DNA of 61,667 nucleotides from Candidatus Sabulitectum sp. GTDB lineage: Bacteria > Fermentibacterota > Fermentibacteria > Fermentibacterales > JCC-6. Below the pieces are notes generated by a model, which saw only the letters and a list, made by a program, of their open reading frames with translations, was not told where the DNA came from and did not search any database. The position numbers were made by a program, and so were the translations under genes. Shown here one piece after another: positions 4,082-54,048 of the stretch (position 1 is its first letter; every line of letters starts with the position of its first letter). The stretch spans positions 5,058-66,724 of the forward strand of contig DAINQE010000008.1 in assembly GCA_036743055.1 (NCBI GenBank). Reading direction: 5' to 3'.

Positions 4082-4084
4082 CAC

Positions 4085-4345
4085 ATGCTTGCGCGGATAA
4101 TGGAGCTTCTGGAGGAACACGGAAGGCTCACACTGGCGGAGTTCGCCAACGCCCTGGAAGCTCCTGAAGATGCGGTGAAGCCCATGATGGACCTTCTCGT
4201 GAGGAAGGGCAGGGTGGAGGAAATGGGGGGAACCTGCTCAACAGGCTCCTGTGCCGGGTGCTCCTTCAGCTGCGGTGGTTCAGCCGCGGTCTATCGCACC
4301 GGAATCAAGCACTCCACGGACCCTGGAGGCCAGCAGGGCGGCTGA
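4085..4345 (+). CDS. feoC: FeoC-like winged-helix protein with Cys cluster
   Basis: 86 aa directly after feoB. IMELLEEHGRLTLAEFANALEAPEDAVKPMMDLLVRKGRV (wHTH) then CSTGSCAGCSFSC (Cys-rich Fe-S-type tail). The last 66 nt overlap the convergent kinase gene. Confidence 0.65.
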   Translation: MLARIMELLEEHGRLTLAEFANALEAPEDAVKPMMDLLVRKGRVEEMGGTCSTGSCAGCSFSCGGSAAVYRTGIKHSTDPGGQQGG

Positions 4346-7300
4346 AAAAGGTTTCTGAATGAAATTGATGCCGGTCTCGACCACTCCTCTGCTGGCAATA
4401 ACCTCGTCGGGGTAACCGGACATGTAGAGCACCTTCAGGTCGGGAATGGTCTCCTTCAGTGCGCCGTAGAGTTCCCTGCCGTTCATTCCAGGCATAACCA
4501 CATCGGTGAGAAGGAGATGCAGGGGTTCTTCCAGCTCCGAGACCATACCCAGGGCCTGCGAACCGCTTGAAGCGGTGATCATCCTGTAGCCGGTCCTGGA
4601 CAGTATTTCGCAGGCAAGGCTCCGCACCTGGTCATCGTCCTCCACCAGAAGCACCGTTTCGCTGCCTACGGGTTCTCCCGGGGCTGCCGGCCCCTCCGGT
4701 AAGGTTTCCGCACACCCTGAGAGCAGCGGCAGGTACACCGAAAAACGGGAGCCTTCACCGGGAACGCTGTCGACCCAGACATAGCCGTCATGCTGCTTAA
4801 CTATTCCGTAAACGGTTGCAAGCCCCAGCCCTGTCCCCTCGGTCATGCTCTTCGTGGTGTAGAATGGCTCGAAGACCTGTGAGCAGACATCCGGTTCCAT
4901 TCCCGTTCCTGTATCACTGACTACAAGACTGGCATATGTGCCCGGCTGCATCTCGTCCCCGGAGCCGGGAAGGTCAGTCGGCACTTCCACCCTGTTTGTT
5001 TCTATAATGAGGCTTCCCCCCTCGGGCATCGCATCCTGGGCGTTCACCGCCAGGTTCATCAGCACCTGTTCCAGCTGCCCCCTGTCCCCCATGATGTGAA
5101 GAGGATCGCCGAATGGGAGGAAATCTATCAAGATGTCTTCGGTAATGGTCCTTTGCAGGAGGGGGATGAAGTCGCCGACGAGGGTATTGATGTCCAGTGA
5201 GCGGAACTGAAGGGTCTGCCTGCGGCTGAAGGCCAGCAGCTGCTGGACCAGTTCCCGTGCTTTTTCGCCGGCGTTCTGTATGTGTTCCAGATTCTCCCTT
5301 TCCCTGCCCCTGGGCAGGCTTTCCCTCAGCATCTCTCCGTATCCCAGGATTGGGGTAAGGAGGTTGTTCAGATCGTGGGCTACACCCCCGGCCAGCCTTC
5401 CCACCGATTCCAGCCGCTGGAACTGCTGGAACCTCTCCTCCAGTCTTCTGTTCTCCCTCTCCATCCGTTTCTTCTCGGTGATGTCCTGTCCAACAATTAT
5501 CGCCGCCGGTCTTCCGTTCATGTTCACGGAGACCGACGTGGAGTAGCTCCAGCGCTCCTCTCCGCTGGGGTGGATGAACTTGAGCTCCACTGGAGAGTTG
5601 GATTCTCCCGATGCGGTCTTCATCATCCGTCGCTTCACCAGGGGGCGGTACTCCGGCGAAAGCTGCAGTAGAGGGTCTACGCCCTGGAGTTCGCTTGGGT
5701 CCTCATGCCCCAGAAGCCTGGCACCCGCTGGGTTGCAGTAGATGTACCTGCCGTCCTGCAGGAGGAAAATGGCGTAGGGAGACTGCTCCACCAGGGCCCT
5801 GAACCTGGCCTCGCTCTCATGGAGAGCCCTCTCGGCCAGGGTTCTCTCCGTTATGTCCGTGGCAATGCTCAAGACCGCCTGTTTACCCTGCCAGGATATC
5901 TTCTTGGCCTGAACATGAAGGGGGAACGTGGAGCCGTCCTTCCTGTAGTGCATCACCTCGAAGGATGCCTCCCCTTCCCTGTCTATCCTGTCGAACCTTT
6001 CCGCAAGCAGGGCTTCGCTCTCGGGAACGTCAAGCCGGTGCAGGTTTACGCTGCGGAAATCGCTCTCCTCTTCGTAGCCATGGAGTCTCAGGGTCTCTCT
6101 GTTCGCGTAGAGGAACGCTCCCCCAGTGTCGTGTATGGTTATTGAGGCCGGTGCTGAATCCAGCATCTGGCCGAGAAGGCGTATCCTCTCCTCCCTGGCC
6201 CTCGCCTCGGTAACGTCCAGGGCGTTTCCCACAAAGCGTGAAAGCTCCCCGGAATCGTCGAAGAGGGGCGTGACCACCGAGCGGAACCATCTCAGCGAGC
6301 CGTTCTTGTGAACTACCCTGAACTCGGCGGCCGGAAGGGCTTCGCCGGCTTCCTCGGTGGCCTTCAGCCCCCTGCTGCAGAAAGCCATGTCCTCAGGGTA
6401 TACGAACTCATGGAAGTGCTTCCCAACGGCCTCGCTGGAAGAAAAGCCCAGGTGAGACTGCCAACTGGGGGATACATAGTCGAGGATGCCGTGGGGCAGC
6501 AGTTCGTAGATAACGCTCTGGCTGTTCTCCACCAGGTGACGGTACCGGCTTTCAGCCTCCCGCAGTGCCTGTTCGGCACGCTTCCTCTCGGTGGTTACCC
6601 TGAAGTATATGGACACCCTGCCCTCGCTGGAGGGAAAGAGACGCATGTCGTACCAGTCGGCATAAGGCTCCCTGTCGAAGTAAACCTCGAACACCTGGGG
6701 TTCTCCGGACTCCCTGGCCTTCATGTATCGTTCATTGAAGACCGAATCGTTCCCCTCCGGAAAAACATCCCTCACCGACCGCCCGAGGACCTGCTTCGGA
6801 TCAACGCCCAGCTGCTCCCCTGCGGCGCGGTTGAAATAGGTTATGCGGAGGTCACCGTCCAGGGTTATCATGGCGTCGGAAATGCTGTCCAGTATCTCCG
6901 CCTTCTCCCTTTCGGAAAGAGCGCTTTCCCTCTGAAGGTCACTCCTGTAGAAACCAGCGGCAATATCCGAAGCCAGCTCGGTGAAAAGGCCGAGTTCCTC
7001 ATCGTCGTCGGCGAACTCCATTGGGACCGAAGCGGACAGAACGCCGTAAGTCCGTCCAGAATGGCGAAGCCTTGTGGTGAAACCGGCCCTGTCGCTGTAG
7101 AACTCGGCCAGGGGACAGTCCGGGCAGTCCCTGGGGGGATCCCTGAGAACAAGCACCTTCGAGGAGTCCAGGGCTTTAACGGTGCATGACGGCGGTCTGC
7201 CCTGGGTGAACGCGGCGCCCAGGGAGTCGAACTCCGCTCCGAACCCGCTGGAAACGATGGAGCCGAAGGAACCGTCTTCATTAAGCAGGACCATCCAGGC

Positions 7301-7576
7301 ATTGTGGTAACTGAGGTTCCCGGTAAGTACCCTGCATATTTCCCGGGCCGTGCTTTCTCTGTTCCTGTCCTGGTTCAGAAGGGCGCTCACGGCCCTGAGG
7401 GAGTGGAGCACCTGCTTCAGGTGCTGTTCTCTCCTCTTCGCCGTGGCAAGCCGGGAGAGAAGGGACCTGTCCTGACCGAGAACGGTGTCCACCTCACCGC
7501 TCCTCAGCGCTGCCAGGGCGGACTCGGCGGCTAAGAGCCTTTCGACCAGCTCACCACGGGTCAAGTCATCATGCAT
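4280..7576 (-). CDS. Hybrid sensor histidine kinase (coiled coil-GAF-4xPAS-HisKA-HATPase-REC)
   Basis: H-box VAHDLNNLLTPILGYGEML, N/G boxes (NLAVNAQDAM, DTGTGM, GTGLGLATV), C-terminal receiver VLLVEDDDQV...LLLTDVVMPGMNG...YMSGY, and several PAS cores. The ATG at 7576 overlaps the kaiB stop by 8 nt; the TTG at 7585 is an alternative start. Confidence 0.9.
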   Translation of the reverse strand: MHDDLTRGELVERLLAAESALAALRSGEVDTVLGQDRSLLSRLATAKRREQHLKQVLHSLRAVSALLNQDRNRESTAREICRVLTGNLSYHNAWMVLLNEDGSFGSIVSSGFGAEFDSLGAAFTQGRPPSCTVKALDSSKVLVLRDPPRDCPDCPLAEFYSDRAGFTTRLRHSGRTYGVLSASVPMEFADDDEELGLFTELASDIAAGFYRSDLQRESALSEREKAEILDSISDAMITLDGDLRITYFNRAAGEQLGVDPKQVLGRSVRDVFPEGNDSVFNERYMKARESGEPQVFEVYFDREPYADWYDMRLFPSSEGRVSIYFRVTTERKRAEQALREAESRYRHLVENSQSVIYELLPHGILDYVSPSWQSHLGFSSSEAVGKHFHEFVYPEDMAFCSRGLKATEEAGEALPAAEFRVVHKNGSLRWFRSVVTPLFDDSGELSRFVGNALDVTEARAREERIRLLGQMLDSAPASITIHDTGGAFLYANRETLRLHGYEEESDFRSVNLHRLDVPESEALLAERFDRIDREGEASFEVMHYRKDGSTFPLHVQAKKISWQGKQAVLSIATDITERTLAERALHESEARFRALVEQSPYAIFLLQDGRYIYCNPAGARLLGHEDPSELQGVDPLLQLSPEYRPLVKRRMMKTASGESNSPVELKFIHPSGEERWSYSTSVSVNMNGRPAAIIVGQDITEKKRMERENRRLEERFQQFQRLESVGRLAGGVAHDLNNLLTPILGYGEMLRESLPRGRERENLEHIQNAGEKARELVQQLLAFSRRQTLQFRSLDINTLVGDFIPLLQRTITEDILIDFLPFGDPLHIMGDRGQLEQVLMNLAVNAQDAMPEGGSLIIETNRVEVPTDLPGSGDEMQPGTYASLVVSDTGTGMEPDVCSQVFEPFYTTKSMTEGTGLGLATVYGIVKQHDGYVWVDSVPGEGSRFSVYLPLLSGCAETLPEGPAAPGEPVGSETVLLVEDDDQVRSLACEILSRTGYRMITASSGSQALGMVSELEEPLHLLLTDVVMPGMNGRELYGALKETIPDLKVLYMSGYPDEVIASRGVVETGINFIQKPFSAALLASRVRGVLDSGAIDRG

Positions 7577-7865
7577 TCGCCTCAAGGTCCGTTCCGAAGA
7601 TGGAGTCGAGTTCCCTTGTCTTCGTCAGGTTCCCGTAGATTATCAAGGTGGAGTCGCCTGAACCCAGCAGAAGGGCCGGGGTAATGAATACGCCTCTGTC
7701 CAGGGCTTCTTCGGGATGCTCCATCACATCCACGATGTGGACCCTGTTCCAGCTGATCCCCGCTCTGTCCAGCAGACGGTGAAGGTTGTCGAGGGCAATG
7801 ATCGAGTTGGGAGCCTTCCCCGCTATGAAAAGCCGTATCGTTCCTGTGGAGGAATCGAAGGTCAT
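7569..7865 (-). CDS. kaiB: Circadian clock protein KaiB homolog
   Basis: IRLFIAGKAPNSIIALDNLHRLL...VHIVDVMEHPEEALDRGVFITPALL...IIYGNLT aligns by eye with Synechococcus KaiB (LKLYVAGNTPNSVRAL...VIDVLKNPQLAE..ILATPTL..IIGDLS). ATGA overlap with kaiC. Confidence 0.9.
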   Translation of the reverse strand: MTFDSSTGTIRLFIAGKAPNSIIALDNLHRLLDRAGISWNRVHIVDVMEHPEEALDRGVFITPALLLGSGDSTLIIYGNLTKTRELDSIFGTDLEANA

Positions 7866-9313
7866 TGAAGGGCACCCCCCTGCACCTTGATTCCCGAGTC
7901 CGTTATCAGGAACGGGTGGATAGCCGATGAATGGTTCCTGCCCCTGGACTTCAGTATGCCCATCTCCCTGATGTACTCTCCCCCTGATTCCTCGTTCCTG
8001 AGGATGATGGCGGTGTCGATAACCGAGGAGAGGTCCATTCCGGAGATCTCGCTTCCATAATCCCTGGTGGATGCCAGGTTCGTGAGGAGTGAAGTGATCC
8101 CCCTCTGCTTGCAGTGGTTGATCAGCCTGAGCATGTAGTCGAAGGCGGCGTGTTTCGAGCCCATCCTCCTGCAGGCGGAGATGGCGTCCACCACCAGGTG
8201 GTGAGGTTCGAACTCCTTGATCGCCATGAAGGCCTGGATCAGATGCTCCTCAACCCCCTGGGCCTCGGGCATGATGGAGAGGAACTTCATCAGTTCTGCA
8301 TCCATGGCCGGTTCCAGTTTCAATCCCGGACTGCTCATGCAGGAAAGAAGGGCATCCCATGACTCCTCGAAATCGATGTAGAGCACCTTCTCCCCCTGAG
8401 ATGTAATCCTCTCCACGAAGGAGCACACGAAGGTTGTCTTACCTGTGCCCGAACCCCCGGTGAACAGTGTGCAGGAGCCACGTCTGTACCCTCCGCCCAT
8501 GAGTTCGTCCATCCCGGCAACTCCCGTGGGAAGGCTTTCACCAAGGGCTTTCTGCTGGAGGGATGTCTGCGTCACCGGTATTATCCACACACCGTGCCGG
8601 GTGATACCGAAGGGATACTCGTTCCTGCCGTACGAAGATCCCCTGTACTTGATCACCCTCAAACGCCTTGTGGTTATCTGTTCCTGAACACGCTGATCGA
8701 GGTGAACCACGCAGTCGGCCATGTAGTCAAGGAAGTCGTAGTACGAATCCCCCCCGTTATGGGCGCTTCGCTTCACCGTCATGATGGAGGTCAGCTCCCG
8801 GTCCACCAGCCATTCATGGAGGATCCTGAGCTCCGCCCGTTCAGAAGCCCTGTCGCTGAGAAGGCCCAGGAAAGCATCAGGGGCGTCTATGAGTACAAGC
8901 TTCCCTCCCAGTCTGTCCAGGGTGCTTGAAAGAATCGCGGTAATACCCTTCAGGTCGAAGTCGCCTGCGAGGATGGCCTGGGGGTCGATCCTGGCGCCGA
9001 TGATCCTGAAAAGGTTCTCCTTCTCCAGGGAGGCAAGGTCGAGGCCTATTCCCGCCGCGTACCTGCGCAGTGCCGATTCCCTTTCCTCGAAGGTAAGAAG
9101 GACGCAGGGGGTTCCCGCACCGGCGGCCCTGGCCAGGAGTTCAAGACCGATCATGGTCTTTCCCGTTCCAGGCCCGCCGCTGAGAAGTGTAAGGGAACCC
9201 AGGGGGATCCCGCCGTTGAGGACCTCGTCGAGTCCGGGGATCCCAGTTGGCAGTTTATCCACCGAAGAACTTCGGCATAGGGTGTTATCCGCGTCCGGCA
9301 TGCTCACCTCCAT
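7862..9313 (-). CDS. kaiC: Circadian clock protein KaiC homolog (double RecA-like ATPase)
   Basis: Two Walker A motifs (GGPGTGKT, GGSGTGKT) and catalytic EE pairs (TFEERE, DFEESW). N-terminal LPTGIPGLDEVLNGGIP; the phosphosite region LSSVIDTAIIL aligns with ISTITDTIILL. An alternative ATG lies at 9301. Confidence 0.93.
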   Translation of the reverse strand: MEVSMPDADNTLCRSSSVDKLPTGIPGLDEVLNGGIPLGSLTLLSGGPGTGKTMIGLELLARAAGAGTPCVLLTFEERESALRRYAAGIGLDLASLEKENLFRIIGARIDPQAILAGDFDLKGITAILSSTLDRLGGKLVLIDAPDAFLGLLSDRASERAELRILHEWLVDRELTSIMTVKRSAHNGGDSYYDFLDYMADCVVHLDQRVQEQITTRRLRVIKYRGSSYGRNEYPFGITRHGVWIIPVTQTSLQQKALGESLPTGVAGMDELMGGGYRRGSCTLFTGGSGTGKTTFVCSFVERITSQGEKVLYIDFEESWDALLSCMSSPGLKLEPAMDAELMKFLSIMPEAQGVEEHLIQAFMAIKEFEPHHLVVDAISACRRMGSKHAAFDYMLRLINHCKQRGITSLLTNLASTRDYGSEISGMDLSSVIDTAIILRNEESGGEYIREMGILKSRGRNHSSAIHPFLITDSGIKVQGGALQ

Positions 9314-9452
9314 GGTTCACAGTCGGGCGAATAGAAGGCAGGCAGGGTATCGCCCTCTTATGCTCTTTACCAACAAAACTATATAACAGAGGATTGAGCG
9401 CTCGCCAATCCCGGGTTTTGACACTTGATTGGCCGTGAATCATCTTCCGGGA

Positions 9453-10802
9453 ATGGAACACAGGATTCGAAAACTTAACGCCGCGCCGGAGGTCCGGGGA
9501 AGCTGCGTAATTTACTGGATGCAGCACGCCAGACGGGCTTCCTGGAACCACGCCCTGGAGTTCGCAGCATCCCTGGCTGAAAGGGCGAGGGTTCCCCTGT
9601 ATGTATTCTTCGCAGTAACCGACACATTCCCCTCGGCGAACCTGAGACACTTCTCGTTCATGCTTCAGGGGCTGGGGGAAACCGCAGCCATTCTCAGGGA
9701 GAGGGGCGCCGGTTTCATACTCAGGAAGGTGAATCCCGCCGAGGGTGCGGTGGAGCTTGCGGAAAGGCTCAGGGCCGGAGCACTGGTCACCGACTGCGGC
9801 CACCTTGCAGTTCATCGTAAGTGGAGAAGGAGCGCCGCAATGTCCCTTGAAATACCCATGTTCCAGGTGGAGACTGACATGGTGGTCCCGGCATGGGTGG
9901 CTTCAGACCGGGAGGAAGCAGCGGCATGGACCCTCAGAAGAAAGCTGCAGGGGCATATCAGCTGGTTCCTGAAAGAGCCGGAGACCATATCCCTGCCGGT
10001 GGACATGTCTTCCCATTCGGAGGAAACCCTTGATCCAGGCGACCTTAACGGCATACTACGCCTTCTGGATATCGACAGGTCCGTTCGGCCATCCCCTGTG
10101 TTCCAGGGAGGCCCGTCGGAAGCGATGGCCAGATGGACATCCTTCATGGAGAAAGGACTCTCGGACTATACCCGCAACGCCAGGAATCCCGGAATCCGCG
10201 GCACATCAATGATGAGCATGTACCTGCATTTCGGTCATGTATCCCCGGTGATGATGGCCGCAGACGCCCTCCGCCAGGGAGCTGCCGAGTTCTTTGAACA
10301 GCTGGTGGTGAGGAGGGAGCTGGCGATCAACTTCACCGAGTACGACCTGAACTACTCAAACCCCCGTTCCATGCCTGAGTGGGCCGCCATAACACTCCAT
10401 GAGCACAGGAATGACCCCAGGGAAGCCATCTATGACCTGGAGACCCTGGAACGGGCCGGAACCGGCGACGAATACTGGAACGCCGCCCAGAGGGAGATGG
10501 TGGAAACCGGCCACATGCACGGCTACATGAGGATGTACTGGGGAAAGAAGGTCCTCCAGTGGACCGAAAGCCCGGAAACCGCTTGGAAATACCTTGTGCA
10601 CCTCAACGACAGATACCAGCTGGACGGCAGGGATCCCAACGGCTACGCCGGCATAGCCTGGTGCTTCGGAAAGCACGACAGGCCCTTCGGGACATTTCCA
10701 GTTACAGGGAACATCAGACGCCTTGGGTCTTCGATGGAAAGAATGCGACGTCAGAGGTCTTCGAAGTACAACGGTTATCTGAGGAGGCTTTCCGGCTCCT
10801 GA
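9453..10802 (+). CDS. phr: Deoxyribodipyrimidine photo-lyase, class II
   Basis: VIYWMQHARRASWNHALEFA, LVTDCGHL, VETDMVVPAW and a C-terminal FAD-binding region (MYWGKKVLQW...LNDRYQLDGRDPNGYAGIAWCFG) match class II CPD photolyases. Start placed at the first ATG; the TTG at 9429 is possible. Confidence 0.9.
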   Translation: MEHRIRKLNAAPEVRGSCVIYWMQHARRASWNHALEFAASLAERARVPLYVFFAVTDTFPSANLRHFSFMLQGLGETAAILRERGAGFILRKVNPAEGAVELAERLRAGALVTDCGHLAVHRKWRRSAAMSLEIPMFQVETDMVVPAWVASDREEAAAWTLRRKLQGHISWFLKEPETISLPVDMSSHSEETLDPGDLNGILRLLDIDRSVRPSPVFQGGPSEAMARWTSFMEKGLSDYTRNARNPGIRGTSMMSMYLHFGHVSPVMMAADALRQGAAEFFEQLVVRRELAINFTEYDLNYSNPRSMPEWAAITLHEHRNDPREAIYDLETLERAGTGDEYWNAAQREMVETGHMHGYMRMYWGKKVLQWTESPETAWKYLVHLNDRYQLDGRDPNGYAGIAWCFGKHDRPFGTFPVTGNIRRLGSSMERMRRQRSSKYNGYLRRLSGS

Positions 10803-14011: not shown

Positions 14012-15778
14012 TTACCTTACCAGAGTCATTCTGGAAACGGATGTGCCGGCGGACGTGGAGGCGCGCACCAGGTAGATGCCGTTGCCCAGGTCGCCGGGAA
14101 CCTGCCACTGGAACATGTGGCTTCCGACCTGAAGCGATCCGGAGTGAACGGTGGAAACCGTTCTGCCGGAAACATCGTAGACGGACACTTCCGCCACGCC
14201 CTCAACCGGCATGTAAAGGGAGAAGGACGCGGTTGAGGCAACAGGGTTGGGGGATACCCGGGAGAGGGCAGTGGTGAACCCCTCCACAGAGGCGGAGGAA
14301 CCCTCCTGGGTGCCGGTGAGTTCAAGGGCCGCCAGCACCGCCTGGTATATGTCCACCCTTCCGGCACCGTAGTAGTTGTCCTTACCCGCAGCGCCCAGGT
14401 CAATGGAAGTCACTTCGAGGATGGAATCCATCTGGGCCACGGTGAGTTCCGGGTTGGCGCAGAGAAGGAGGGCCATGCAGCCGGCCAGGTGCGGGGTTGC
14501 CATGGAGGTTCCGCTCATGGTGGTGTATCCGTCGGGATCGGAGTAGTTGCAGCTGAGAATGTCAACGCCGGGACCTGATATATCGGGGTCGATCAGTCCG
14601 ATGTCCGGGGAGGTGTCGGGGTAGTCGTTCCAGGGAGCATCGTACATCCAGGTGGAGTAGCCCAGGCTGGAGAACGAGGCCAGGTTGTCGTTGGAATCCG
14701 TGGCTCCCACGGTAATAGTGGCAGTTAGACCACCAGTTGTGATCTGGTCCGGGTGGATCCAGGGGGGCGGGCAGTCGCCGGGGGTTCTTATATCTCCCCA
14801 GTCGCCGGGATTTCCGCCTTCGTTGCCTGCTGCAATGGAGTGGATCACTCCTGCGGCGAGAACATTCTCCTCGCCCTCTCTCCAGGTCTGTCTTGCGGGG
14901 TTCTGGTTCTGGGGCCAGCCAAGACTGGTGGAAATTACCTGGGCTCCGTTCTCAACGCTGAACTCGAAGGCATCCCAGACATCCTGCTCGTCGCCGAAGG
15001 TGGTTCCCACCCGAACGGCCATAAGTGTGGCCTGTGGAGCAACTCCGCAGACCGTCCCTGCATTGCCGTTGCTGCCCACGGATCCTGCACAGTGGGTTCC
15101 GTGACCGTTCTGGTCCATTGGGTCGCCGTCGCCGTCGGCGAAGTCCCAGCCATAATGGTAGCCGGCATCGGTGTCGTGCCACATCTGGTTGTGCAGATCT
15201 ATGTGGTTGTAGTTCACTCCGGTGTCAACGATGCTGACCAGGACTCCCTGGCCCTCGTAGCCCATGGCCCACACGTCCGGGGCGTTGATCTTGTCAACTC
15301 CCCAGGCGTTGGCAAGGAGAAGCTCGTCCCTTACTGGTTCCCTGATCTCCACGGGCTCGATGAGAATATCGGGGAAGGTCTTCAGGGCGATCCATTCAAC
15401 GTCTTCCCTGGCTGCTATCTCAGCGATGACTTCGGCGGTTGCGGCGCAGCCCACAACGCTTACTATCCAGTTGGTCCGTACCTCTTCCACGGAGCCTTCC
15501 GGGAAGGCGGCAAGGGCATCCAGCACCGGCTGCTGGGAAGTTTCGGCGAACTGCTTCATCACGGAGACGGCGAACTCCCTCCTCTGGGCGGAGTTCATGG
15601 AGGCGGCCACAGTGTTGATGTAGTCGAGGTCTGCCCTTCCAGAGGGTTTGATGAGAACGTGGATCAGCTCTCCGGGATCCGATGAAGCCATTTCGGAGCG
15701 GAGGAGATCCGTTACTGTTCCGGCATGCAGAGCCCCTGCCAGAAGCACAACACAGAGTATTGCTTTTACCATTAACAT
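14012..15778 (-). CDS. S8 (subtilisin-like) serine peptidase with T9SS-type C-terminal domain
   Basis: Catalytic triad contexts [32 protein letters not shown]. Signal peptide [19 protein letters not shown] (start trimmed to the ATG at 15778). Tail ...[22 protein letters not shown]. Confidence 0.9.
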
Positions 15779-15931
15779 TCCTTTCGGGTTTACGGGGAAA
15801 ACCAAGGCAACTGATGTGAATATGCGGAACCCGGCTAAAAAATCCAATGGCCTTCCATTGACCAGGTTACGATACCGTGGGTATGGTTCGTTTCAGGAAA
15901 AGGGACTATCACTCGGGAGGCCCCTGATACA

Positions 15932-17207: not shown

Positions 17208-18908
17208 CTACCTTACAACGGTCATCCTGGATGAAACAGTCTGGCCGTTCATGGAGGCCCTTACGAAGTAGATGCCGCTTCCCATTGTATCGGGAATACG
17301 CCAGCTGAAGGCGTTGGGACCTGCGGTGAGTTCGCCGGTCTGGATGTTGGCGGCTCTGCGGCCCGCAACGTCGTACACTGCTATGTCAGCCTGGCCGGAA
17401 ACCACTGCGTTCACACTGAAGGAAGCGTATGTGGCAACCGGGTTGGGGCTCACTGCGCTGATGCCAATCACCGCGGGGTTCACCTGTGCGCTCTGCTCCT
17501 CGGCATTGCCCACCATGGCCAGAGCGGCCAGAACAGCCTGATAGGCGTCGACCCGTCCAGCACCAAAGGTATTGTCCTTGCCCGAGGATCCCAGATCAAG
17601 GCTGGTCTCTTCGATGATCTGATCCATCTCAGCAACGGTGAGGTTGGGATTTGCACTGAGGATCAGCGCGGCAACGCCAGCCAGGTGCGGAGTGGCCATT
17701 GAAGTACCGCTCATTGTGGTGTATCCGCCGTTCCAGGCGGTACTCACAACATCAACTCCCGGTCCGCTGATGTCGGGGTCGATCAGGGGGCTGGAATCGG
17801 AGTAATCATACCACCAGGTGACCGGGCCGCGGCTGGAGAAACTGGCGATGTTGTCGCCGCTGTCGGTGGCGCCCACCGTAACCACAGCGCTCTGCCCGGC
17901 CTGGTAGGTCTGATCTGGGTGGAACCAGGGTGGAGGGCCGTCTCCCGGAGAAAGGACGGTGCCGGCACCGGGGCCGCTGTTTGCGGCTGCAATGCTGTGA
18001 TAGACACCTGCGGTGAGGGCGTTCTCGTTGGCTGTCCTGAGGGAAGTGTTGCCCTGGCCTGAGCCCAGGGACATGGACATCACTGAAGCTCCGTTGTCGA
18101 TGGCGAACTCCATGGCCTCTATCCAGGTTGGCTCGCCGCCGCTGTAGTAGTTGATCCTCAGGGCCATGATGGTGGCCTGGGGCGCTACACCCGTCTCGGT
18201 TCCCGCGGTGCCGTCGCCGGCAACTGAACCGGCGCAGTGGGTGCCGTGTCCGTAGTCGTCCATGGGGTCGCTGTCATTATCGAAAAAGTCCCAGCCGTAG
18301 TGATAACCGGCGGCGGTGTCGTGCCACATGTTGTTGCCCAGGTCGGAGTGGTTGTAGTCCACACCGGTGTCGATCACTGCAACGATGACTCCCTGGCCTT
18401 CATAGCCCAGGGCCCAGGCGTCGTCGGCGTTAATCTTTGAAACGCCCCAGGCGAGACCCTTGCCCCTCTCTTCTGCATTGAGGGGTCTGGTTTCCACAGG
18501 CTCAATGAGCCCGGAGTTCTCGTCGGTGGCCCTCTCCACGTACCACACATCTGACCTTGCGGCCATGCGCCTTATGGCGGAGGGGGAAGCTTCGCAGTAA
18601 ATGCCGTTGGAAAGCCAGAGGGACCTGATGTCCGTGGCGTTCAGGGAGGAAAGTTCCTCAAGTATTCCGGCCTGGGACGCCTGGGCCATCTCCTTCATGG
18701 CCTCCACGGCGAACTCCTGCCTCTGTGCCCTGTTCATTCCGTCGGTGGCTGCATCCACCCAGTTCCTGTCCACCTGGCCGTGGGCCAGTATGAACACCGG
18801 GATGAGGTCGGTGTCGGTGGCACCGGCGAGCATCATCTCCAGGTCAGGGCTGATGGTTCCCGCGGCGGCCAGGGAGACCGCTGCGAGCAGAACCAGCAAC
18901 TGTTTCAT
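17208..18908 (-). CDS. S8 (subtilisin-like) serine peptidase with T9SS-type C-terminal domain (paralog of 14012-15778)
   Basis: [32 protein letters not shown]; signal peptide MKQLLVLLAAVSLAAAG; tail ...GIYFVRASMNGQTVSSRMTVVR. Confidence 0.9.
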   Translation of the reverse strand: MKQLLVLLAAVSLAAAGTISPDLEMMLAGATDTDLIPVFILAHGQVDRNWVDAATDGMNRAQRQEFAVEAMKEMAQASQAGILEELSSLNATDIRSLWLSNGIYCEASPSAIRRMAARSDVWYVERATDENSGLIEPVETRPLNAEERGKGLAWGVSKINADDAWALGYEGQGVIVAVIDTGVDYNHSDLGNNMWHDTAAGYHYGWDFFDNDSDPMDDYGHGTHCAGSVAGDGTAGTETGVAPQATIMALRINYYSGGEPTWIEAMEFAIDNGASVMSMSLGSGQGNTSLRTANENALTAGVYHSIAAANSGPGAGTVLSPGDGPPPWFHPDQTYQAGQSAVVTVGATDSGDNIASFSSRGPVTWWYDYSDSSPLIDPDISGPGVDVVSTAWNGGYTTMSGTSMATPHLAGVAALILSANPNLTVAEMDQIIEETSLDLGSSGKDNTFGAGRVDAYQAVLAALAMVGNAEEQSAQVNPAVIGISAVSPNPVATYASFSVNAVVSGQADIAVYDVAGRRAANIQTGELTAGPNAFSWRIPDTMGSGIYFVRASMNGQTVSSRMTVVR

Positions 18909-47127: not shown

Positions 47128-47582
47128 GAAAGCCTCTCCCTGTATATACCCGGCGAGCTGTGGGGGATCACCGTTGCCCCGCAGGCCTTCTCAAAGAACT
47201 CCCCCGGGCCTGCGTCACCTATCACGGCGTAGCCGTAGCCCGAGGCTTCCATGGCGTTCAGTACGGAAACCACCAGGGCCCTGCCCATACCTTTCCCCCT
47301 GTGCTCTTCCTTCACTCCCACCGGCCCCAGGAACCCCTTAGCCGTGCAGTCCCAGGCGCAGAAACCCGCAGGGGTCATGGAGCCGGTGTGCACAGCTATG
47401 AGAACCGTGGCAGGCACCCGTGAGATCCCGGGCTCGATCTCCGACGCCCATCCCGGGCTGAACACCCGCTCCACCCATTCCGTCAGGCGGGAACCCTCAC
47501 TGGCCATGGGCCTGCGCAGGGTGTAGCCCGGAGGTATGACAAGCTCCCTTGGTCCGTAAAGTTTCGCGAGGAGGTCAGCCAT
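47118..47582 (-). CDS. GNAT family N-acetyltransferase
   Basis: ...LGPVGVKEEHRGKGMGRALVVSVLNAM... motif A; overlaps both neighbouring genes. Confidence 0.8.
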   Translation of the reverse strand: MADLLAKLYGPRELVIPPGYTLRRPMASEGSRLTEWVERVFSPGWASEIEPGISRVPATVLIAVHTGSMTPAGFCAWDCTAKGFLGPVGVKEEHRGKGMGRALVVSVLNAMEASGYGYAVIGDAGPGEFFEKACGATVIPHSSPGIYRERLSWK

Positions 47583-48762
47583 TGTCCGGAAGGCTGAGAA
47601 GGTCCTTCAGGAACATCAGCGATTCGTTCCCGGTTATGGCGCTTAGTATGCTGAGAACAATGCTGAAAACGATAATGGTCATCACCACCGCTTTGCATGC
47701 GTCCTGCCCCTTTATCGAGCCGAGCTGCTTCGGTTCCCTTCCCAGGTAGGCGCTGGCGGCGTAGAGTTCCTCGCCGATAAGGGTGTAGTCGCAGGTGGTT
47801 ATGAAGAATGGAAGCTGGGTCACCGCGTCGGTCCCGGCGATCTGTATAGCGCCTGAAAGGGAACCGGTTTCGGCCAGTATCAGGGATTCGGCCCAGAACA
47901 TCCCCAGGTAGAAGTTCGTGGCGGGCCTGTCCCTCATCATGATTCCGTTGACTCCGGCAACATAAGCGAACTGGGCATCGGTAAGGAAGAAAACGCCGTC
48001 CTTGTCGAAAGCATCCGGCCTGCCGGCTTCCAGGTAGGCCTGGCGCACGGTTTCCTCCGCCACCGTATAAACTATCGGATCGCAGTTCGGCACCAGCAGG
48101 GGCGTCTGGTACTCCGCCACCTTTTTCGCCACCCTTCCCAGGATGGTCAGGCTTGCAATGGTGGCAACGTCGCTTATGGTGGAAAGCCCCGGAACGTAGA
48201 GTATGGGCTTCCCCATCTCGGTGGCCCTGCCGATGGCCTCGTCTATTGCCTCTATCCCTGCAATGGGCCTCAAATAGAGGTCGACCCCCTTCTTAGCCCG
48301 GTGGAAGTAGTAGAGGATAAGGGCGATGAAGATCACGCAGCCCACCAGTACCGGAACCTCATCACTGTTGAACCATTCCCCCCTGGCGATCTCAGCCCCG
48401 GTGAAGACCCCGCTGTACAGGGAGTCCCCATCCATGGTGAAGGTAATGGTCCTGTATTCGTATGCGGTCATGGGCTCGATGGGAAAGTCGGGATCGTATC
48501 CGTCCTCAAGCACCGGAGTTTCCAGTGGAAGGGCTTCCGCAAGCACGGTCTGCCAGGTGTCATCACCGGCATCCCTCCGCTGAACGAGAAGGGCCCCTGC
48601 GTCGGCGGGGCAGTCAGTGGCGCCGGAAACCTCCACCAGGAGGGTGGTACCCGCGTCGTTCGGAGCGTTGTAAACTCCGACTATCTCAGGAACCGAAATC
48701 AAAGCCAGCAGCATCATGGCCAGGGTGAACAAGCCGGACCTCCTGTTATGGGTTATGTTCAA
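47575..48762 (-). CDS. Conserved-looking membrane protein of unknown function
   Basis: 395 aa. N-terminal signal/anchor, an about 130-aa extracytoplasmic domain, a TM helix, a soluble domain (...IAGIEAIDEAIGRATEMGKPILYVPGL...) and C-terminal TM helices. I suspect a DUF family but cannot name it reliably. Confidence 0.6.
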   Translation of the reverse strand: MNITHNRRSGLFTLAMMLLALISVPEIVGVYNAPNDAGTTLLVEVSGATDCPADAGALLVQRRDAGDDTWQTVLAEALPLETPVLEDGYDPDFPIEPMTAYEYRTITFTMDGDSLYSGVFTGAEIARGEWFNSDEVPVLVGCVIFIALILYYFHRAKKGVDLYLRPIAGIEAIDEAIGRATEMGKPILYVPGLSTISDVATIASLTILGRVAKKVAEYQTPLLVPNCDPIVYTVAEETVRQAYLEAGRPDAFDKDGVFFLTDAQFAYVAGVNGIMMRDRPATNFYLGMFWAESLILAETGSLSGAIQIAGTDAVTQLPFFITTCDYTLIGEELYAASAYLGREPKQLGSIKGQDACKAVVMTIIVFSIVLSILSAITGNESLMFLKDLLSLPDNG

Positions 48763-48803: not shown

Positions 48804-49136
48804 ATGAGATCACTGATCGCTGCGGCTGCGATCCTGATGACCGCTGGATGCGGCTTCAAAGGCAACAGGGTAATGGTAACCAACGACACCGATGAGGCCA
48901 TAAGCGGTATCACCGTTTCGGTCTGCGACAGCGTGTGGAGCATTGAGAGCCTTCCCCCGGGGGAAACGGTGGTCTTCAAGGTGGTCTATGACAGGGACGA
49001 CCATTTCAGGGTAAGCTCCCCGGAACTGAACGGAGACTTCGGGTACGTTACCCATGGCATAACCGGGGAGGAAACCGAGATTACCTTCAGAGAGGACAGG
49101 ATCGACTTCAGGCAGTCGGGAAGCGACTTGTACTGA
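48804..49136 (+). CDS. Small lipoprotein
   Basis: MRSLIAAAAILMTAGC lipobox; 110 aa. Confidence 0.6.
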   Translation: MRSLIAAAAILMTAGCGFKGNRVMVTNDTDEAISGITVSVCDSVWSIESLPPGETVVFKVVYDRDDHFRVSSPELNGDFGYVTHGITGEETEITFREDRIDFRQSGSDLY

Positions 49137-49199
49137 CCGTTTCGCAAAACCACAGAAACAGTATATTACCCCCTCGAAAAAAAACCGAAGGGAGGTGAG

Positions 49200-50378
49200 A
49201 TGAACACCCATTGCCCCTGCCCCAACACAGGATGCAGAAGATACGGCAACTGCGAAGCGTGCCGCGAGTTCCACGCAAGCGTGAACTCGCCGGAGTACTG
49301 CAGGCAGACCAGCCGCGTTTCTCCCCAGGCTTCCGGAGGCATCAACCTCATGGATTACGCCGCCTGCGCCGGTTGAGCCGGTAAGATGCCCCCCGGCAGG
49401 TTGTCGGGAATACTGGAGAGGCTGCCATCGGTGAAGAGCCCCGACCTGATCGTGGGAATGGACACCATGGATGACGCAGGGGTGTACCGTCTCTCCGACG
49501 ATTCGGCGCTCGTTCAGACGGTGGACTTCTTCGCGCCTGTGGTGGCGGATCCCCGCACCTTTGGACGAATAGCCGCAGCCAACTCAATGTCGGACATCTG
49601 GGCAATGGGAGGCAAAGCGATAACCGCCATGAACCTCCTCTGCTTCCCGGGAAGCAAACTGGGGCCGGAAGTGGTTGCGGAGATACTCACCGGATCAAGC
49701 GAGAAGCTGGTTGAAGCCGGAGTGGTGCTTGTGGGTGGGCACACCGCCCAGCAGGACGAAGTGCTCTTCGGCCTCAGCGTAACCGGCGTCATCCACCCGG
49801 AACTCGCCAAGATGAACTCGAAGGCCAGGCCGGGAGACGCACTGGTACTCACCAAGCCCCTGGGAGTAGGTATCCTCACCACCGCCAACAAAGCCTGCCC
49901 CCTGGAACCTCGGATAATGGGCCCGGTGATCTCCTCAATGGAGAGGCTGAACATGTACGCCAGCGTTGTTCTCAACGGCTACGACGTAAGCTCCATGACG
50001 GACATCACGGGGTTCGGCCTTCTTGGGCATTCCCTGGCATTCGCCCGGTCGGCGGGAGTCAGGCTTCAGTTCTACCTGAGCCAGGTGCCGGTATTCCCAG
50101 GAACGGTGGAACTCACCGAGAGGTTCTTCCCCGGAGGTTCCGCCCAGAACAGGAAGTACGTGGGCGAAAACGTATACGTCCATCCGGACATAGGATCCAT
50201 AAGGTCAGACATACTCTTCGACGCCCAGACCTCAGGAGGCCTCCTTGCGGCGGTGAGGGCGGATCAGGCGGAAGAGATCATCGAAGCCTTGAGGGAAGCC
50301 GGCGATGAGAACGCCGCAATAGTGGGATCCGTACAAAGAAGGGAAACCGGGGAGCCTCCCCTTACCCTTCTTCCGTAA
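49200..50378 (+). CDS. selD: Selenide, water dikinase (selenophosphate synthetase) SelD, selenocysteine-containing (in-frame TGA at 49374-49376), with Cys-rich N-terminal extension
   Basis: The same frame is open from ATG 49200 (GGAGGTGAG RBS) through the TGA into the track ORF 49386-50378. ...GGINLMDYAACAG-U-AGKMPPGRLSGIL aligns with E. coli [25 protein letters not shown], so TGA sits on Cys17 and K on Lys20. Downstream are the AIRS-type motifs DDAGVY, VDFFAPVVADPRTFGRIAAANSMSDIWAMGG. Confidence 0.85.
49392..49408 (+). other. Candidate bacterial SECIS apical hairpin
   Basis: CCCGGC-AGGUU-GUCGGG (6 bp including one G-U pair, 5-nt loop containing GGU) begins 15 nt after the UGA. An alternative lower pairing is GCCGG(49377-81)/CCGGC(49393-97). 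Confidence 0.4.
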
Positions 50379-51417
50379 AAAGCCTTATGTGCTCCAAGGC
50401 ACAATCCACAATGGAATAGCTCCTGGAACGGACGGCTCCCGCCCTGCCCGTACCAATCGCCATGGAAGGGTCCAGCAGAAGCGACCGCAGCGCTTTGGCC
50501 ATGGCCGAAGTGTCGGAAGGATCCACAAGTATCCCTGCATCAGAACCCACCACCTCGCTGAGCCCGGGAACGTCGGATGCCACAACGGGCAGCCCTGAGG
50601 CCATTGCCTCCACCGCGGCGATGCCGAAACCCTCCCAGGAAGAGGGCATGAAGAAGATGTCCGACCGCTTCATCAGTTCAGGCAGGTCATCGACGTAACC
50701 AGTAAACACGACGGTACCAGCGGCAACGAGGTCGGATGCCCGGGCACGAAGCTCCTCCAGCAGCGGCCCTTCCCCGGCTACGGTCCACACGAATGGAAGG
50801 GTGTGTTCATCTGCGAGCTTCCTCACCGCTTCCAGAGCTCTGAAGAGGTTCTTTGCCTGGGCTATCCTTCCGGCGGACAGTATCACAGGCGGTTCATGGA
50901 AGCCGTTCCTTACAACTGGCGGGAACCTGTCCAGGAACACACCGTTGCTGATGACCTTTGTCCTGCCCTGAAGGAATGGTTTCCATGAGACCAGGGCTTC
51001 TTCAACAGCCGGGCTTATGCAAACCACCTTTCTGTAGGGAGCGTATGTGAAACGGTCCAGCAGCCTTCCTCTGAGGGTTCCCCGCCTTCTGTTCCAGGTG
51101 CTGTGTTCCGTTGCGAAGATGGCCCCGGAGTAACCGCGGCGGCGCAGTGCGAAAGGTACCGTGAGCAGCGCCGGGAACAGGTGAACATGCACCGCATCGA
51201 TCCGCCCCCCGGGCATCAGGGCGCTTGCCTTTGAAGCCGCCAGCGGATGGTATGGTGAGGAAAGACCGGTTGAGTGGATCCCCTTCCCGGAAGCAGGTCC
51301 CGAGAGGGCGATCACCATGGAATCGTGGCCCATGTCCGTATATGTCCGGTGCAGGTCCAGCACCAGTCTTTCAGCTCCGCCGCCCACTGCGGCGTTGACT
51401 ATCTGAACGATTCTCAA
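50362..51417 (-). CDS. Glycosyltransferase family 4
   Basis: N-terminal RIVQIVNAAVGGGAERLVLDL and C-terminal EGFGIAAVEAMASGLPVVASDVPGLSEVV (GT4 E-x7-E region). Start proposed at the TTG at 51417 after an AGGGGGA RBS. Confidence 0.85.
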   Translation of the reverse strand: MRIVQIVNAAVGGGAERLVLDLHRTYTDMGHDSMVIALSGPASGKGIHSTGLSSPYHPLAASKASALMPGGRIDAVHVHLFPALLTVPFALRRRGYSGAIFATEHSTWNRRRGTLRGRLLDRFTYAPYRKVVCISPAVEEALVSWKPFLQGRTKVISNGVFLDRFPPVVRNGFHEPPVILSAGRIAQAKNLFRALEAVRKLADEHTLPFVWTVAGEGPLLEELRARASDLVAAGTVVFTGYVDDLPELMKRSDIFFMPSSWEGFGIAAVEAMASGLPVVASDVPGLSEVVGSDAGILVDPSDTSAMAKALRSLLLDPSMAIGTGRAGAVRSRSYSIVDCALEHIRLFTEEG

Positions 51418-51472
51418 TACAGTCCCCCTGATGGAAGATATTGTCACACCGAATATAACCGGAAGGAACGCC

Positions 51473-51874
51473 ATGACCGACGAGAAGGCTCTTCAGAAGG
51501 AGATCAGCCAGTATCACAGCGAAAAGGAATCAGTAAGAAAGATACTGGGTGAGATAGGCGGCAGCACCACGAAGAGGAAGGAAACAATCATCAACATCAC
51601 CTTCGCCGTGCTCGTGGTGCTGTTCTTCTCCTTCGACGTGATGCGCCACGCCCTGCACACGGAGATAGACTTCATCCCTGAGCTCTTCAGCGTGGAGATA
51701 GCCCTTCTGCTGGTATCCATGAAGATAATCTGGATGATCCACCGCCAGCAGAAGGTGGAGCACTACCAGTTCTGGATACTGAACACCATCGAGTTCCAGA
51801 TGAACTCCACCGCCGCCAGGGTGCGGAAGATCGAGAAGCTGCTGAAGGAAGACGAAAGGGAGCGGGGCAAATGA
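51473..51874 (+). CDS. Hypothetical two-TM membrane protein
   Basis: MTDEKALQKEISQYHSEKE... then TM helices (IINITFAVLVVLFFSF, FSVEIALLLVSMKIIWMI) and a charged C-terminus. GGAAGGA RBS. Confidence 0.5.
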   Translation: MTDEKALQKEISQYHSEKESVRKILGEIGGSTTKRKETIINITFAVLVVLFFSFDVMRHALHTEIDFIPELFSVEIALLLVSMKIIWMIHRQQKVEHYQFWILNTIEFQMNSTAARVRKIEKLLKEDERERGK

Positions 51875-52005: not shown

Positions 52006-53292
52006 CTATTTAAACGGGAGTACTTTTTCAGTTCCTATCCCAGCAGCTTGACGGAACGAGTTCCGGAGATTTCTTGTCTGCCTTCTCATAGTGGGGAGTA
52101 CTCGTTGCTGAACAGATTCCTCCATTCTTAATCGAGGTAGCCCCGAATCTAGAACAGTCGACAAAATTTCTGCCATAGTAAGAACAAAACCTCGTAACCA
52201 CTTAGGCGATAGACCACAATCCTCAGCCAGCAAATCAAACTGGCGTGGACCTACGCGTCCAGGATCGAAAGTAGAACCTATACTCATCGCCATCTCTTTA
52301 TCGAGATTGGTATAACTACGAGTGCACACCAAATCATAAAAAGGCGCAAGTTCAACTTTGCCATCAGGGTAAAACAGAAGGGAAGCATTCTTTGCATGCG
52401 CATCTGAATTGCCAATTAAGGTGTTAAAGACTAGCCATCGCAGAAGCTGATCTCGCTCTATTACGGGCTCTGTGCAAACTCGATCAACCAACTGGAGGCA
52501 ATCCCTGAACGATGGACCTCCCTCAGATTCGTACTTTTTAAAGTACGGGAATCCAAGTGCTTGGCACATGTCTTCCTGATGCATTCGTCGAATGTTCTCT
52601 ACAGAATCAATGTATCTGTCGTAACGAGAGACCATGCAGGTCTCAATATCGCGAACCTTGAAAATCCAGGCATCAACGGTTCGTATTCCTATGTGTTTGG
52701 CTAAGCTAACGGTAAATACTTCGTTTGCCGGAAGGTCTCTGTAATCGCTACTAGGAAATTTCATTATGTGAGTAGAAGGGCAACCATTTTGAGGGAGGAG
52801 TACTTCATCTCCATTTAAACGTATAGGCAACTTGTCCTGTGCCCCAGCAAGAGAAAGCCGCGCTTTTTTCTTTCCAAGAACTGACGAAAACACATTCCCA
52901 TCTGTAATTCTTTGATACAATTCGTCTTGCTGAATGACCGTGTAGACCTGTTCCTCTTGAGATACTGGTTTTCCTTCACCTATCCAAAGCGCTCCTGCGC
53001 ATTCGCCACCAATTCGAGCAAGCAACTCAAAATCGTTGTCAAGGGATACACCAAGTGACTGAGCAATACTCTTACGAACTAAACCCTCAGGCAGAAGATT
53101 GGTAAAAAACGAGTGTGCTATCTCTGGTGTGTATAGTATCTCTCTGCACGGCATTGTAATAGAAATAGGGAAAGCTTTCGGATTACCTAACCATGAAAAT
53201 GAGTACTGGAACGACATCCTATTCATTGTATCAGCAGTGATAAGTCCTACTTCGAAATTCTCGAAGTACACACTCAACGTCTTATCTGTCAT
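52006..53292 (-). CDS. hipA: Type II toxin HipA family serine/threonine kinase
   Basis: N-terminal coupling domain (...FFTNLLPEG..., LSLAGAQDKLP), catalytic core MHQEDMCQALG...KYESEGGPSF and NSDAHAKNASLLF. Confidence 0.92.
   Translation of the reverse strand: MTDKTLSVYFENFEVGLITADTMNRMSFQYSFSWLGNPKAFPISITMPCREILYTPEIAHSFFTNLLPEGLVRKSIAQSLGVSLDNDFELLARIGGECAGALWIGEGKPVSQEEQVYTVIQQDELYQRITDGNVFSSVLGKKKARLSLAGAQDKLPIRLNGDEVLLPQNGCPSTHIMKFPSSDYRDLPANEVFTVSLAKHIGIRTVDAWIFKVRDIETCMVSRYDRYIDSVENIRRMHQEDMCQALGFPYFKKYESEGGPSFRDCLQLVDRVCTEPVIERDQLLRWLVFNTLIGNSDAHAKNASLLFYPDGKVELAPFYDLVCTRSYTNLDKEMAMSIGSTFDPGRVGPRQFDLLAEDCGLSPKWLRGFVLTMAEILSTVLDSGLPRLRMEESVQQRVLPTMRRQTRNLRNSFRQAAGIGTEKVLPFK

Positions 53293-53972: not shown

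Positions 53973-54048
<76 letters not shown>

Follow-up and report, generated by a model that had tools for sequence, protein, structure and literature searches.

An in-frame TGA in selD of Candidatus Sabulitectum is very probably a selenocysteine codon in a gene that opens with a cysteine-rich module

Does the TGA inside the selD locus of Candidatus Sabulitectum sp. end one gene just ahead of another, or is it a selenocysteine (Sec) codon within a single gene for SelD? The locus lies in a stretch of 61,667 nucleotides (nt) of contig DAINQE010000008.1 (assembly GCA_036743055.1), which is called the window below and to which all positions refer unless another contig or locus is named. On the + strand, one reading frame extends from the ATG at 49200 to the TAA at 50376-50378, and its sole internal stop, as read in the sequence and its translation, is the TGA at 49374-49376; the first-pass annotation, made from the letters of this DNA and a list of its open reading frames (ORFs), had claimed an unbroken frame back to ATG 49200 apart from this TGA, and that was exact. 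The ORF list divides the gene into 49200-49376 (58 amino acids, aa) and 49386-50378 (330 aa). The sequence bordering the stop is ...GGINLMDYAACAG-TGA-AGK-MPPGRL, and in the joined product of 392 residues the TGA is codon 59 and the Met of ATG 49386 is residue 63. We hold it very likely that 49200-50378 encodes one 392-residue SelD in which UGA codon 59 is decoded as Sec, an insertion that we infer from the evidence set out here.

For the protein searches, Cys was put in place of the TGA. The joined product scored 349.7 bits against the selD equivalog TIGR00476 of NCBIfam (cutoff 125), in a match of residues 50-356 to profile positions 2-310, and 312.6 bits against NF002098 (cutoff 299). As the first of these matches begins at residue 50 with profile position 2, the SelD profile starts before the TGA. 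Both domains expected of a SelD were also found, AIRS (PurM-like N-terminal domain, residues 91-198, 49470-49793 (+); PF00586, E = 1.8e-25) and AIRS_C (residues 210-382, 49827-50345 (+); PF02769, E = 1.9e-16), so that the alignment to SelD profiles proposed in the first-pass annotation bore out its assignment. On the strength of the frame and of the TIGR00476 and NF002098 matches, we take the complete coding sequence to be 49200-50378 (+), that is, 392 codons including Sec59, and the TAA at 50376-50378.

The best match by sequence to a solved structure was E. coli SelD (3u0o, E = 3.9e-69, residues 46-375 aligned); the solved SelD structures 2yye and 2zau were matched as well. In the phmmer alignment to 3u0o_A, residue 59, which is the TGA, falls on Cys17 and Lys62 on Lys20, confirming what had earlier been aligned by hand, namely, a TGA on the catalytic Cys17 with the equivalent of Lys20 three residues further on. 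Aquifex aeolicus SelD (2yye) likewise has a Cys, that of its SSGCAAK loop, in the column of residue 59. The catalytic loop as a whole, INLMDYAACAG-U-AGK (residues 48-62, 49341-49385 (+), with C56-x-x-U59 and Lys62), aligns with residues 6-20 of the E. coli protein (3u0o). Judged by its sequence, the 392-aa product is SelD (selenide, water dikinase; selenophosphate synthetase).

The public annotation reads the locus otherwise, as two genes: a 58-aa Cys-rich protein running to the TGA at 49376, and an N-terminally truncated SelD starting from ATG 49386. Gene callers and the NCBI annotation (P0165, P0001) agree on this, an ATG is present at 49386, and free-standing homologs of the Cys-rich module occur elsewhere. 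The 330-aa piece is 100% identical to P0001, named 'selenide, water dikinase SelD [Candidatus Sabulitectum sp.]' by NCBI; the counterpart of the 58-aa piece is P0165, with one residue changed relative to the window copy and no product name, and several homologous N-terminal fragments are named 'hypothetical protein'. All contigs with this selD have the two pieces called as separate genes, 9 nt apart, just as the first-pass annotation had predicted when it stated that standard gene callers mis-annotate selenoproteins here. With few exceptions, the close homologs in the database have a length of about 330 aa and are thus truncated at the same place. However, the 58-aa piece ends in a SelD motif, (I/V)xL(M/L)DYxxCAG, which aligns to residues 6-16 of the E. 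coli protein, and a start at 49386 would remove both the catalytic Cys/Sec and the Lys from the enzyme.

The orthologs bear on these two readings. A scan with one genome per GTDB species gave 80 loci, of which 79 could be read in frame upstream. At the catalytic column, 44 of the 79 have TGA, 29 have TGC and 6 have TGT, whereas TAA and TAG are absent; it had been suggested that related genomes be compared for Cys or TGA at this column, and these are the two states found (44 TGA vs 35 TGC/TGT). The TGA type comprises all Fermentibacterota loci (Sabulitectum, Fermentibacter and Aegiribacteria), and it occurs also in Phycisphaerae, Sedimentisphaerales, Verrucomicrobiota, Ignavibacteriota, Cloacimonadota, Fidelibacterota and a few metagenome-assembled genomes (MAGs) of Myxococcota. 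The Cys type comprises the Lachnospiraceae loci and the majority of the Myxococcaceae/Archangium loci. SelD identities to the orthologs range from 42 to 91%, with the frame kept on both sides of the TGA codon, and CAG-U-AGK together with the residues preceding it remains conserved in frame even where SelD identity is as low as about 42%. When the 58 codons before the TGA were compared between the window and 12 loci of the Sabulitectum clade, 200, 203 and 388 differences fell at codon positions 1, 2 and 3, respectively, a third-position bias that marks the frame as translated. Where the window has ATG 49386, 26 of the 44 TGA-type loci have CTN; therefore, no start codon is conserved past the TGA. 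The first-pass annotation had named orthologs starting at the equivalent of 49386 as an observation that would speak against it, and what was found is this CTN, with the profile match and the conserved residues extending before the TGA. Given that the stop is invariably TGA and that the remaining orthologs have Cys in its column, the reading as two genes is extremely improbable.

A further explanation is that the TGA results from a sequencing or assembly error, or is an inactivating mutation, and that the gene is in truth a Cys-type selD or a pseudogene. Single-nucleotide TGC-to-TGA errors do happen in low-coverage MAGs, and one low-coverage locus of our set (L001, 2.9x) has an extra TGA at the codon for Cys56. 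Nevertheless, the identical SelD protein is present on 21 contigs, and in each of the 10 loci fetched from NCBI, JGI, ENA and Logan assemblies codon 59 is TGA. Nine of these ten are identical to the window across 1179 nt; the remaining one is a strain variant with 10 other substitutions, and it too has the TGA. The error for TGC or TGT about which the first-pass annotation had warned is thus contradicted by 10 of 10 independent assemblies. As the TGA recurs in 44 species-level genomes and purifying selection acts on the frame on both sides of it, an error or a pseudogene is effectively refuted, with hardly any probability left to it.

The low-coverage locus deserves a comment of its own. It belongs to the closest species-level relative (SelD 91% identical), and its second TGA (L001 2980-2982, on contig CAYLXG010000190.1) gives the loop AA*AG*AGK; its database fragment, P0164, stops at that TGA and is 55 aa long. 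Either the low coverage has produced an error at this codon, or the active site is UxxU.

The TGA is followed by a hairpin, CCCGGC-AGGUU-GUCGGG at 49392-49408 (+), which was recognised by folding, RNAalifold and covariation as the upper hairpin of a Sec insertion sequence (SECIS). It begins 15 nt past the TGA and its apical loop (49398-49402) 21 nt past it; the stem has 6-7 bp, the loop is A-G-G-U-U, and the minimum free energy (MFE) of the upper hairpin lies between -9.2 and -10.7 kcal/mol. The model published for bacterial SECIS elements has a stem of 4-16 bp, a loop of 3-9 nt with N1-G-[G|U]-N-N2, a spacing of 16-37 nt and an MFE <= -7.5 kcal/mol (PMC13188914, Fig. 2), and the hairpin at 49392-49408 fits it. 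At codons 6-11 after the UGA, the hairpin is kept in all TGA-type sequences of Fermentibacterota, of the Planctomycetota-Verrucomicrobiota-Chlamydiota (PVC) group and of Ignavibacteriota, with 5-6 of 6 pairs in each, whereas Cys-type orthologs form 37% of the pairs in the same columns. In the TGA-type genes of Myxococcota and Cloacimonadota, the hairpin is placed differently. RNAalifold applied to 29 sequences recovered the same hairpin unprompted, with a C-G/G-C exchange in one pair and G-U, C-G and A-U in another, mostly at synonymous sites. In a two-helix SECIS model, 85.9% of cells were paired, vs 15-44% when the 3' partners were slid, and the covariation score of the model was reached by 0 of 500 shuffles. 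The upper helix on its own had 94.8% of cells paired and two covarying pairs. A lower helix around it (49378-49383 paired with 49411-49416, spanning 49378-49416 (+)) had 77% of cells paired, three pairs changed on both sides and two broken in about half of the sequences, and we propose it only tentatively.

Sec decoding would further require the proteins SelA and SelB, and the first-pass annotation had implied a full decoding system in this organism. The selA and selB genes of a MAG carrying this selD were identified via cluster membership, NCBI naming and Pfam domains. In assembly GCA_035399605.1, contig DAOPJH010000191.1 encodes SelA (P0302, 458 aa) followed by SelB (626 aa, with Beta-barrel_SelB and WHD_2nd/3rd_SelB domains in Pfam), and contig DAOPJH010000200.1 of the same assembly carries selD with 0 mismatches. 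Since selA-selB and the identical selD are in one MAG, the organism's own MAG carries selA and selB. The same combination was found in JGI metagenome 3300010350, with selA-selB on Ga0116244_10002151 and a 0-mismatch selD on Ga0116244_10003168, and the NCBI accessions of SelD and SelA have four series in common (HOP, HPF, HPJ and HPR). With the Sabulitectum SelA as a probe, SelA-SelB operons were found in the MAGs of the two closest species as well, GCA_964387445.1 (locus L001) and GCA_964571965.1 (locus L003, SelD 82% identical). In four relatives from Sabulitectum/Fermentibacteraceae, the genes immediately upstream of selD, on the opposite strand, are selA and selB; those of loci L006 and L011 scored 496-503 bits against TIGR00474 (cutoff 268) and 318-325 bits against TIGR00475 (cutoff 242) in NCBIfam. 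In three TGA-type relatives, one from Fermentibacteria (L023) and two others (L027, L036), a tRNA-SeC gene adjoins selD, and selA and selB are not in the flanks of these three loci; nor were they among the 30 largest ORFs of the window searched with NCBIfam. A genome lacking selB and tRNA-Sec had been named beforehand as the outcome that would count against Sec, and selA and selB are both present in the MAG with the identical selD.

Two of these relatives have further genes near selD. In L036, an Ignavibacteriota MAG, the Sec-type selD is flanked by a gene for a double-cubane-cluster anaerobic reductase (824-2104; NF040772, 399 bits) and by the tRNA-SeC gene (4034-4130), an arrangement that agrees with the double-cubane/SelD co-occurrence described in bioRxiv 10.1101/2022.07.06.499078. 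In L102, a Fermentibacteraceae scaffold, a 190-aa TusA and DsrE-like protein is encoded at 6980-7552, about 1 kb from selD, and it is a possible sulfur/selenium carrier.

The UGA could still be read through without Sec, either by near-cognate insertion of Trp or Cys or because UGA has been reassigned throughout the lineage. UGA reassignment has occurred in some uncultured lineages, and no tRNA-Sec was found for the species. However, UGA serves as an ordinary stop in the window: FeoB (1835-4081) ends with a TGA at 4079 and has full-length profile coverage. Moreover, the SECIS-type hairpin is conserved after TGA-type genes only, and selA and selB are in the same MAG as selD. This points away from readthrough of another kind, which we consider very unlikely. 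A raw scan of the window for other genes split by TGA returned 120 chance candidates in GC-rich DNA and was dropped.

Several observations nevertheless weigh against decoding of codon 59 as Sec. No tRNA-Sec was detected in the 61.7-kb window, where the sole tRNA found is tRNA-Phe, or within 6-10 kb of selA-selB in this species and one relative; a fixed-spacing tRNA-Sec pattern had zero matches among the retrieved loci. When the 60 nt after the UGA were folded singly, their stability was no greater than that of shuffled sequences (z = -0.42), and the hairpin had no Rfam family match at gathering or permissive thresholds. As the fold of a single sequence is uninformative here, the evidence for a SECIS comes from comparison, and the covariation in that comparison represents a few clade-level events rather than many independent ones.

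How the gene would be expressed can be outlined from the established bacterial Sec pathway, as summarised in PMC13188914, from which we infer each step. A ribosome arriving at the UGA (Sec59 codon, 49374-49376 (+), assigned from the Sec/Cys column in 79 loci and the TGA in 10/10 assemblies) would be met by SelB-GTP-Sec-tRNA(Sec) bound to the apical part of the hairpin at 49392-49408, and the SelB complex would insert Sec59 in place of termination. In the finished enzyme, Sec59 and Lys62, placed in a flexible Gly-rich N-terminal loop, would accept reduced selenium and, by transferring the gamma-phosphate of ATP, form selenophosphate. SelA would then use selenophosphate to make Sec-tRNA(Sec); as SelA requires selenophosphate, SelD would depend on its own product. 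The first ~35 residues would form a separate small Cys6-His module on a variable linker.

Sec in this position is not a surprise. Sec-type SelD (UxxK, TIGR00476) is experimentally verified and has been described as ranking second in spread among prokaryotic selenoprotein families (PMC13188914), and with a form so widespread a Sec reading here is unsurprising; the statement in the first-pass annotation that Sec-for-Cys substitution in SelD is an established phenomenon is borne out by the same source. The protein resembles the Sec-type SelD of Haemophilus influenzae, Aquifex aeolicus and Clostridioides difficile in its AIRS/AIRS_C domains, its catalytic loop, and a probable Sec in the Cys17 column with Lys at +3; it also shares with them an in-frame SECIS hairpin right after the UGA, a presumed dependence on selA/selB/selC and the routine truncation by gene callers. 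It differs from them in the extra ~35-residue Cys6-His module and linker before the catalytic loop, and in a SECIS sequence that is lineage-specific and without an Rfam model. E. coli SelD (3u0o) can be aligned to it over residues 46-375, with the entire N-terminal loop included, but has Cys17 instead of Sec and Cys17-Gly-Cys19 instead of CxxU, and it lacks the N-terminal module. Sec decoding as such is textbook knowledge, to which the locus adds just a new phylum-level example; in the library searched, we found no paper joining Fermentibacter and selenocysteine. The modest novelty appears to lie in the unannotated Cys6-His module, which, from the sequences compared, seems restricted to Sec-type SelD.

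The module occupies residues 5-34 (49212-49301 (+)) and was delimited by ortholog conservation: C5, P6, C7, C12, C18, C21, H25 and C34 are invariant among 16 diverse orthologs. Its signature in the N-terminal 35-40 residues of SelD is CPC-x3-4-C-x5-C-x2-C-x3-H-x8-C. It is followed by a little-conserved linker (residues 35-47, 49302-49340 (+)) of varying length, the N-terminal fragments being 55-77 aa long across taxa. Of 45 Sec-type (TGA) loci, 37 have the module in front of SelD, vs 0 of 35 Cys-type loci. Residues 1-47 have no Pfam or NCBIfam domain match; an assignment of the module to DUF6485 was not borne out, there being no Pfam match. A search of PDB sequences with the module profile returned only a non-significant likeness to the zinc-finger knuckle of SIAH1 (E = 0.6-0.9), and AlphaFold2, run on the 58-aa fragment with a 60-sequence alignment, gave a poor model, its mean predicted local distance difference test (pLDDT) score being 55.

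A word-indexed search with the module profile found 61 proteins, every one of 55-77 aa. Of 23 inspected, 22 end with ...CAG directly before the stop, and these proteins are therefore the detached N-termini of selD genes that were split; the exception, P0156, falls into a group with C-x-S-TGA-x-N-K-H-stop. An exhaustive HMMER scan of 1.84 billion representatives gave 324 proteins at E <= 0.001, including many free-standing proteins of 36-65 aa with the module signature; fusions were rare, an example being P0408, which has a GNAT domain. Among the best 150 of these 324 there was no full-length Cys-type SelD. P0035 (373 aa) was considered as a Cys-type fusion and rejected, its extension being C-terminal. 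Eight free-standing homologs had no Pfam match, and three genes of this kind are on short contigs with no selenium genes.

Two small free-standing homologs, encoded in L100 (1609-1815) and L101 (885-1091), read ...C-S/P-S-TGA-x-N-K-H-stop, with NKH conserved between the unrelated contigs; such small homologs may constitute a selenoprotein, small and so far unrecognised, whose C-terminus has CxxU. Each of the two genes comes after a gene for a metallo-beta-lactamase-fold protein. Two other module homologs, P0331 and P0346, have similar ends, LCPA and LCPS.

For the role of the module, two candidates stand out as most likely, metal binding and a thiol/selenol relay to the CxxU active-site loop. 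It is conceivable, and we put it forward as a tentative and somewhat doubtful proposal, that the Cys6-His module is an unrecognised selenium-handling domain which, by binding metal or selenide or by relaying thiol/selenol groups, would supply the CxxU loop of Sec-type SelD with reduced selenium. Its fusion to Sec-type SelD only and the possible CxxU end of some free-standing copies are consistent with such a function. The module would have been hidden so far by annotation, which cuts the gene at the TGA, and we found no paper describing it.

The SelD fusions described so far are of two classes, NADH-dehydrogenase-like-SelD and NifS-like-SelD; the added domain is always N-terminal and the SelD nearly always Cys-type, the Sec-type exception being NifS-SelD of Geobacter sp. 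FRC-32 (PMC4561486). The active site of Ndh- and NifS-SelD fusions is CxxC or CxxU (PMC2398784), and that of the Geobacter protein is CxxU. The SelD of the window resembles them in having an extra N-terminal domain and such a site (C56-A-G-U59), but its module is only ~30 residues long, matches neither Ndh nor NifS and is joined to Sec-type SelD only. If the selenium-handling proposal were true, the two known classes of SelD fusion would be joined by a third, peculiar to the selenoprotein form. The route by which selenium reaches SelD in vivo is an open question (PMC13188914), and a Cys-rich domain present on only the Sec form of SelD in several phyla is a testable candidate for a part of selenium delivery or protection. 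Apart from the module, the systematic splitting of selD in Fermentibacterota, several PVC lineages, Ignavibacteriota and other MAG lineages means that selenium-utilisation scoring and selenoprotein counts will go wrong for these genomes.

The surroundings of selD in the window differ from those in relatives. A Shine-Dalgarno-like GGGAGG, read in the sequence at 49190-49195 (+), lies 4 nt before ATG 49200. Directly upstream of selD is an ORF of 110 aa (48804-49136 (+)) that matched no family and whose N-terminus (MRSLIAAAAILMTAGC) resembles that of a lipoprotein; each of the 10 fetched contigs with this selD has this ORF too. In several relatives from Sabulitectum/Fermentibacteraceae (L006, L009, L011, L102 and L091-L096 were compared), selD is divergent beside selA-selB, between an Rnf operon and two genes for UDP-glucose dehydrogenase. 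The selD gene has moved in the window lineage: selA-selB remain at that place, and selD lies between a gene for a DUF6754 membrane protein (47575-48762 (-)) and one for a GT4 glycosyltransferase (50362-51474 (-)). In many loci of Sabulitectum and Fermentibacter, selD has a tRNA-Phe gene downstream of it, and in the window a HipA-family toxin-like gene (52006-53292 (-)) lies between selD and tRNA-Phe(GAA) (53973-54048 (-)). As the distance from selD to tRNA-Phe is greater in the window, the HipA region looks like an insertion.

Elsewhere in the window, two genes for subtilisin-like serine proteases (14012-15847 and 17208-18908, both (-)) each encode a type A C-terminal sorting domain of the type IX secretion system (T9SS; TIGR04183). 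A gene for a KaiC-family double-domain ATPase (7862-9313 (-); NF006799, 445 bits, cutoff 408) adjoins a class 2 photolyase-like gene (9429-10802 (+)), a pair that was unexpected in an organism from what appear to be anaerobic-digester samples.

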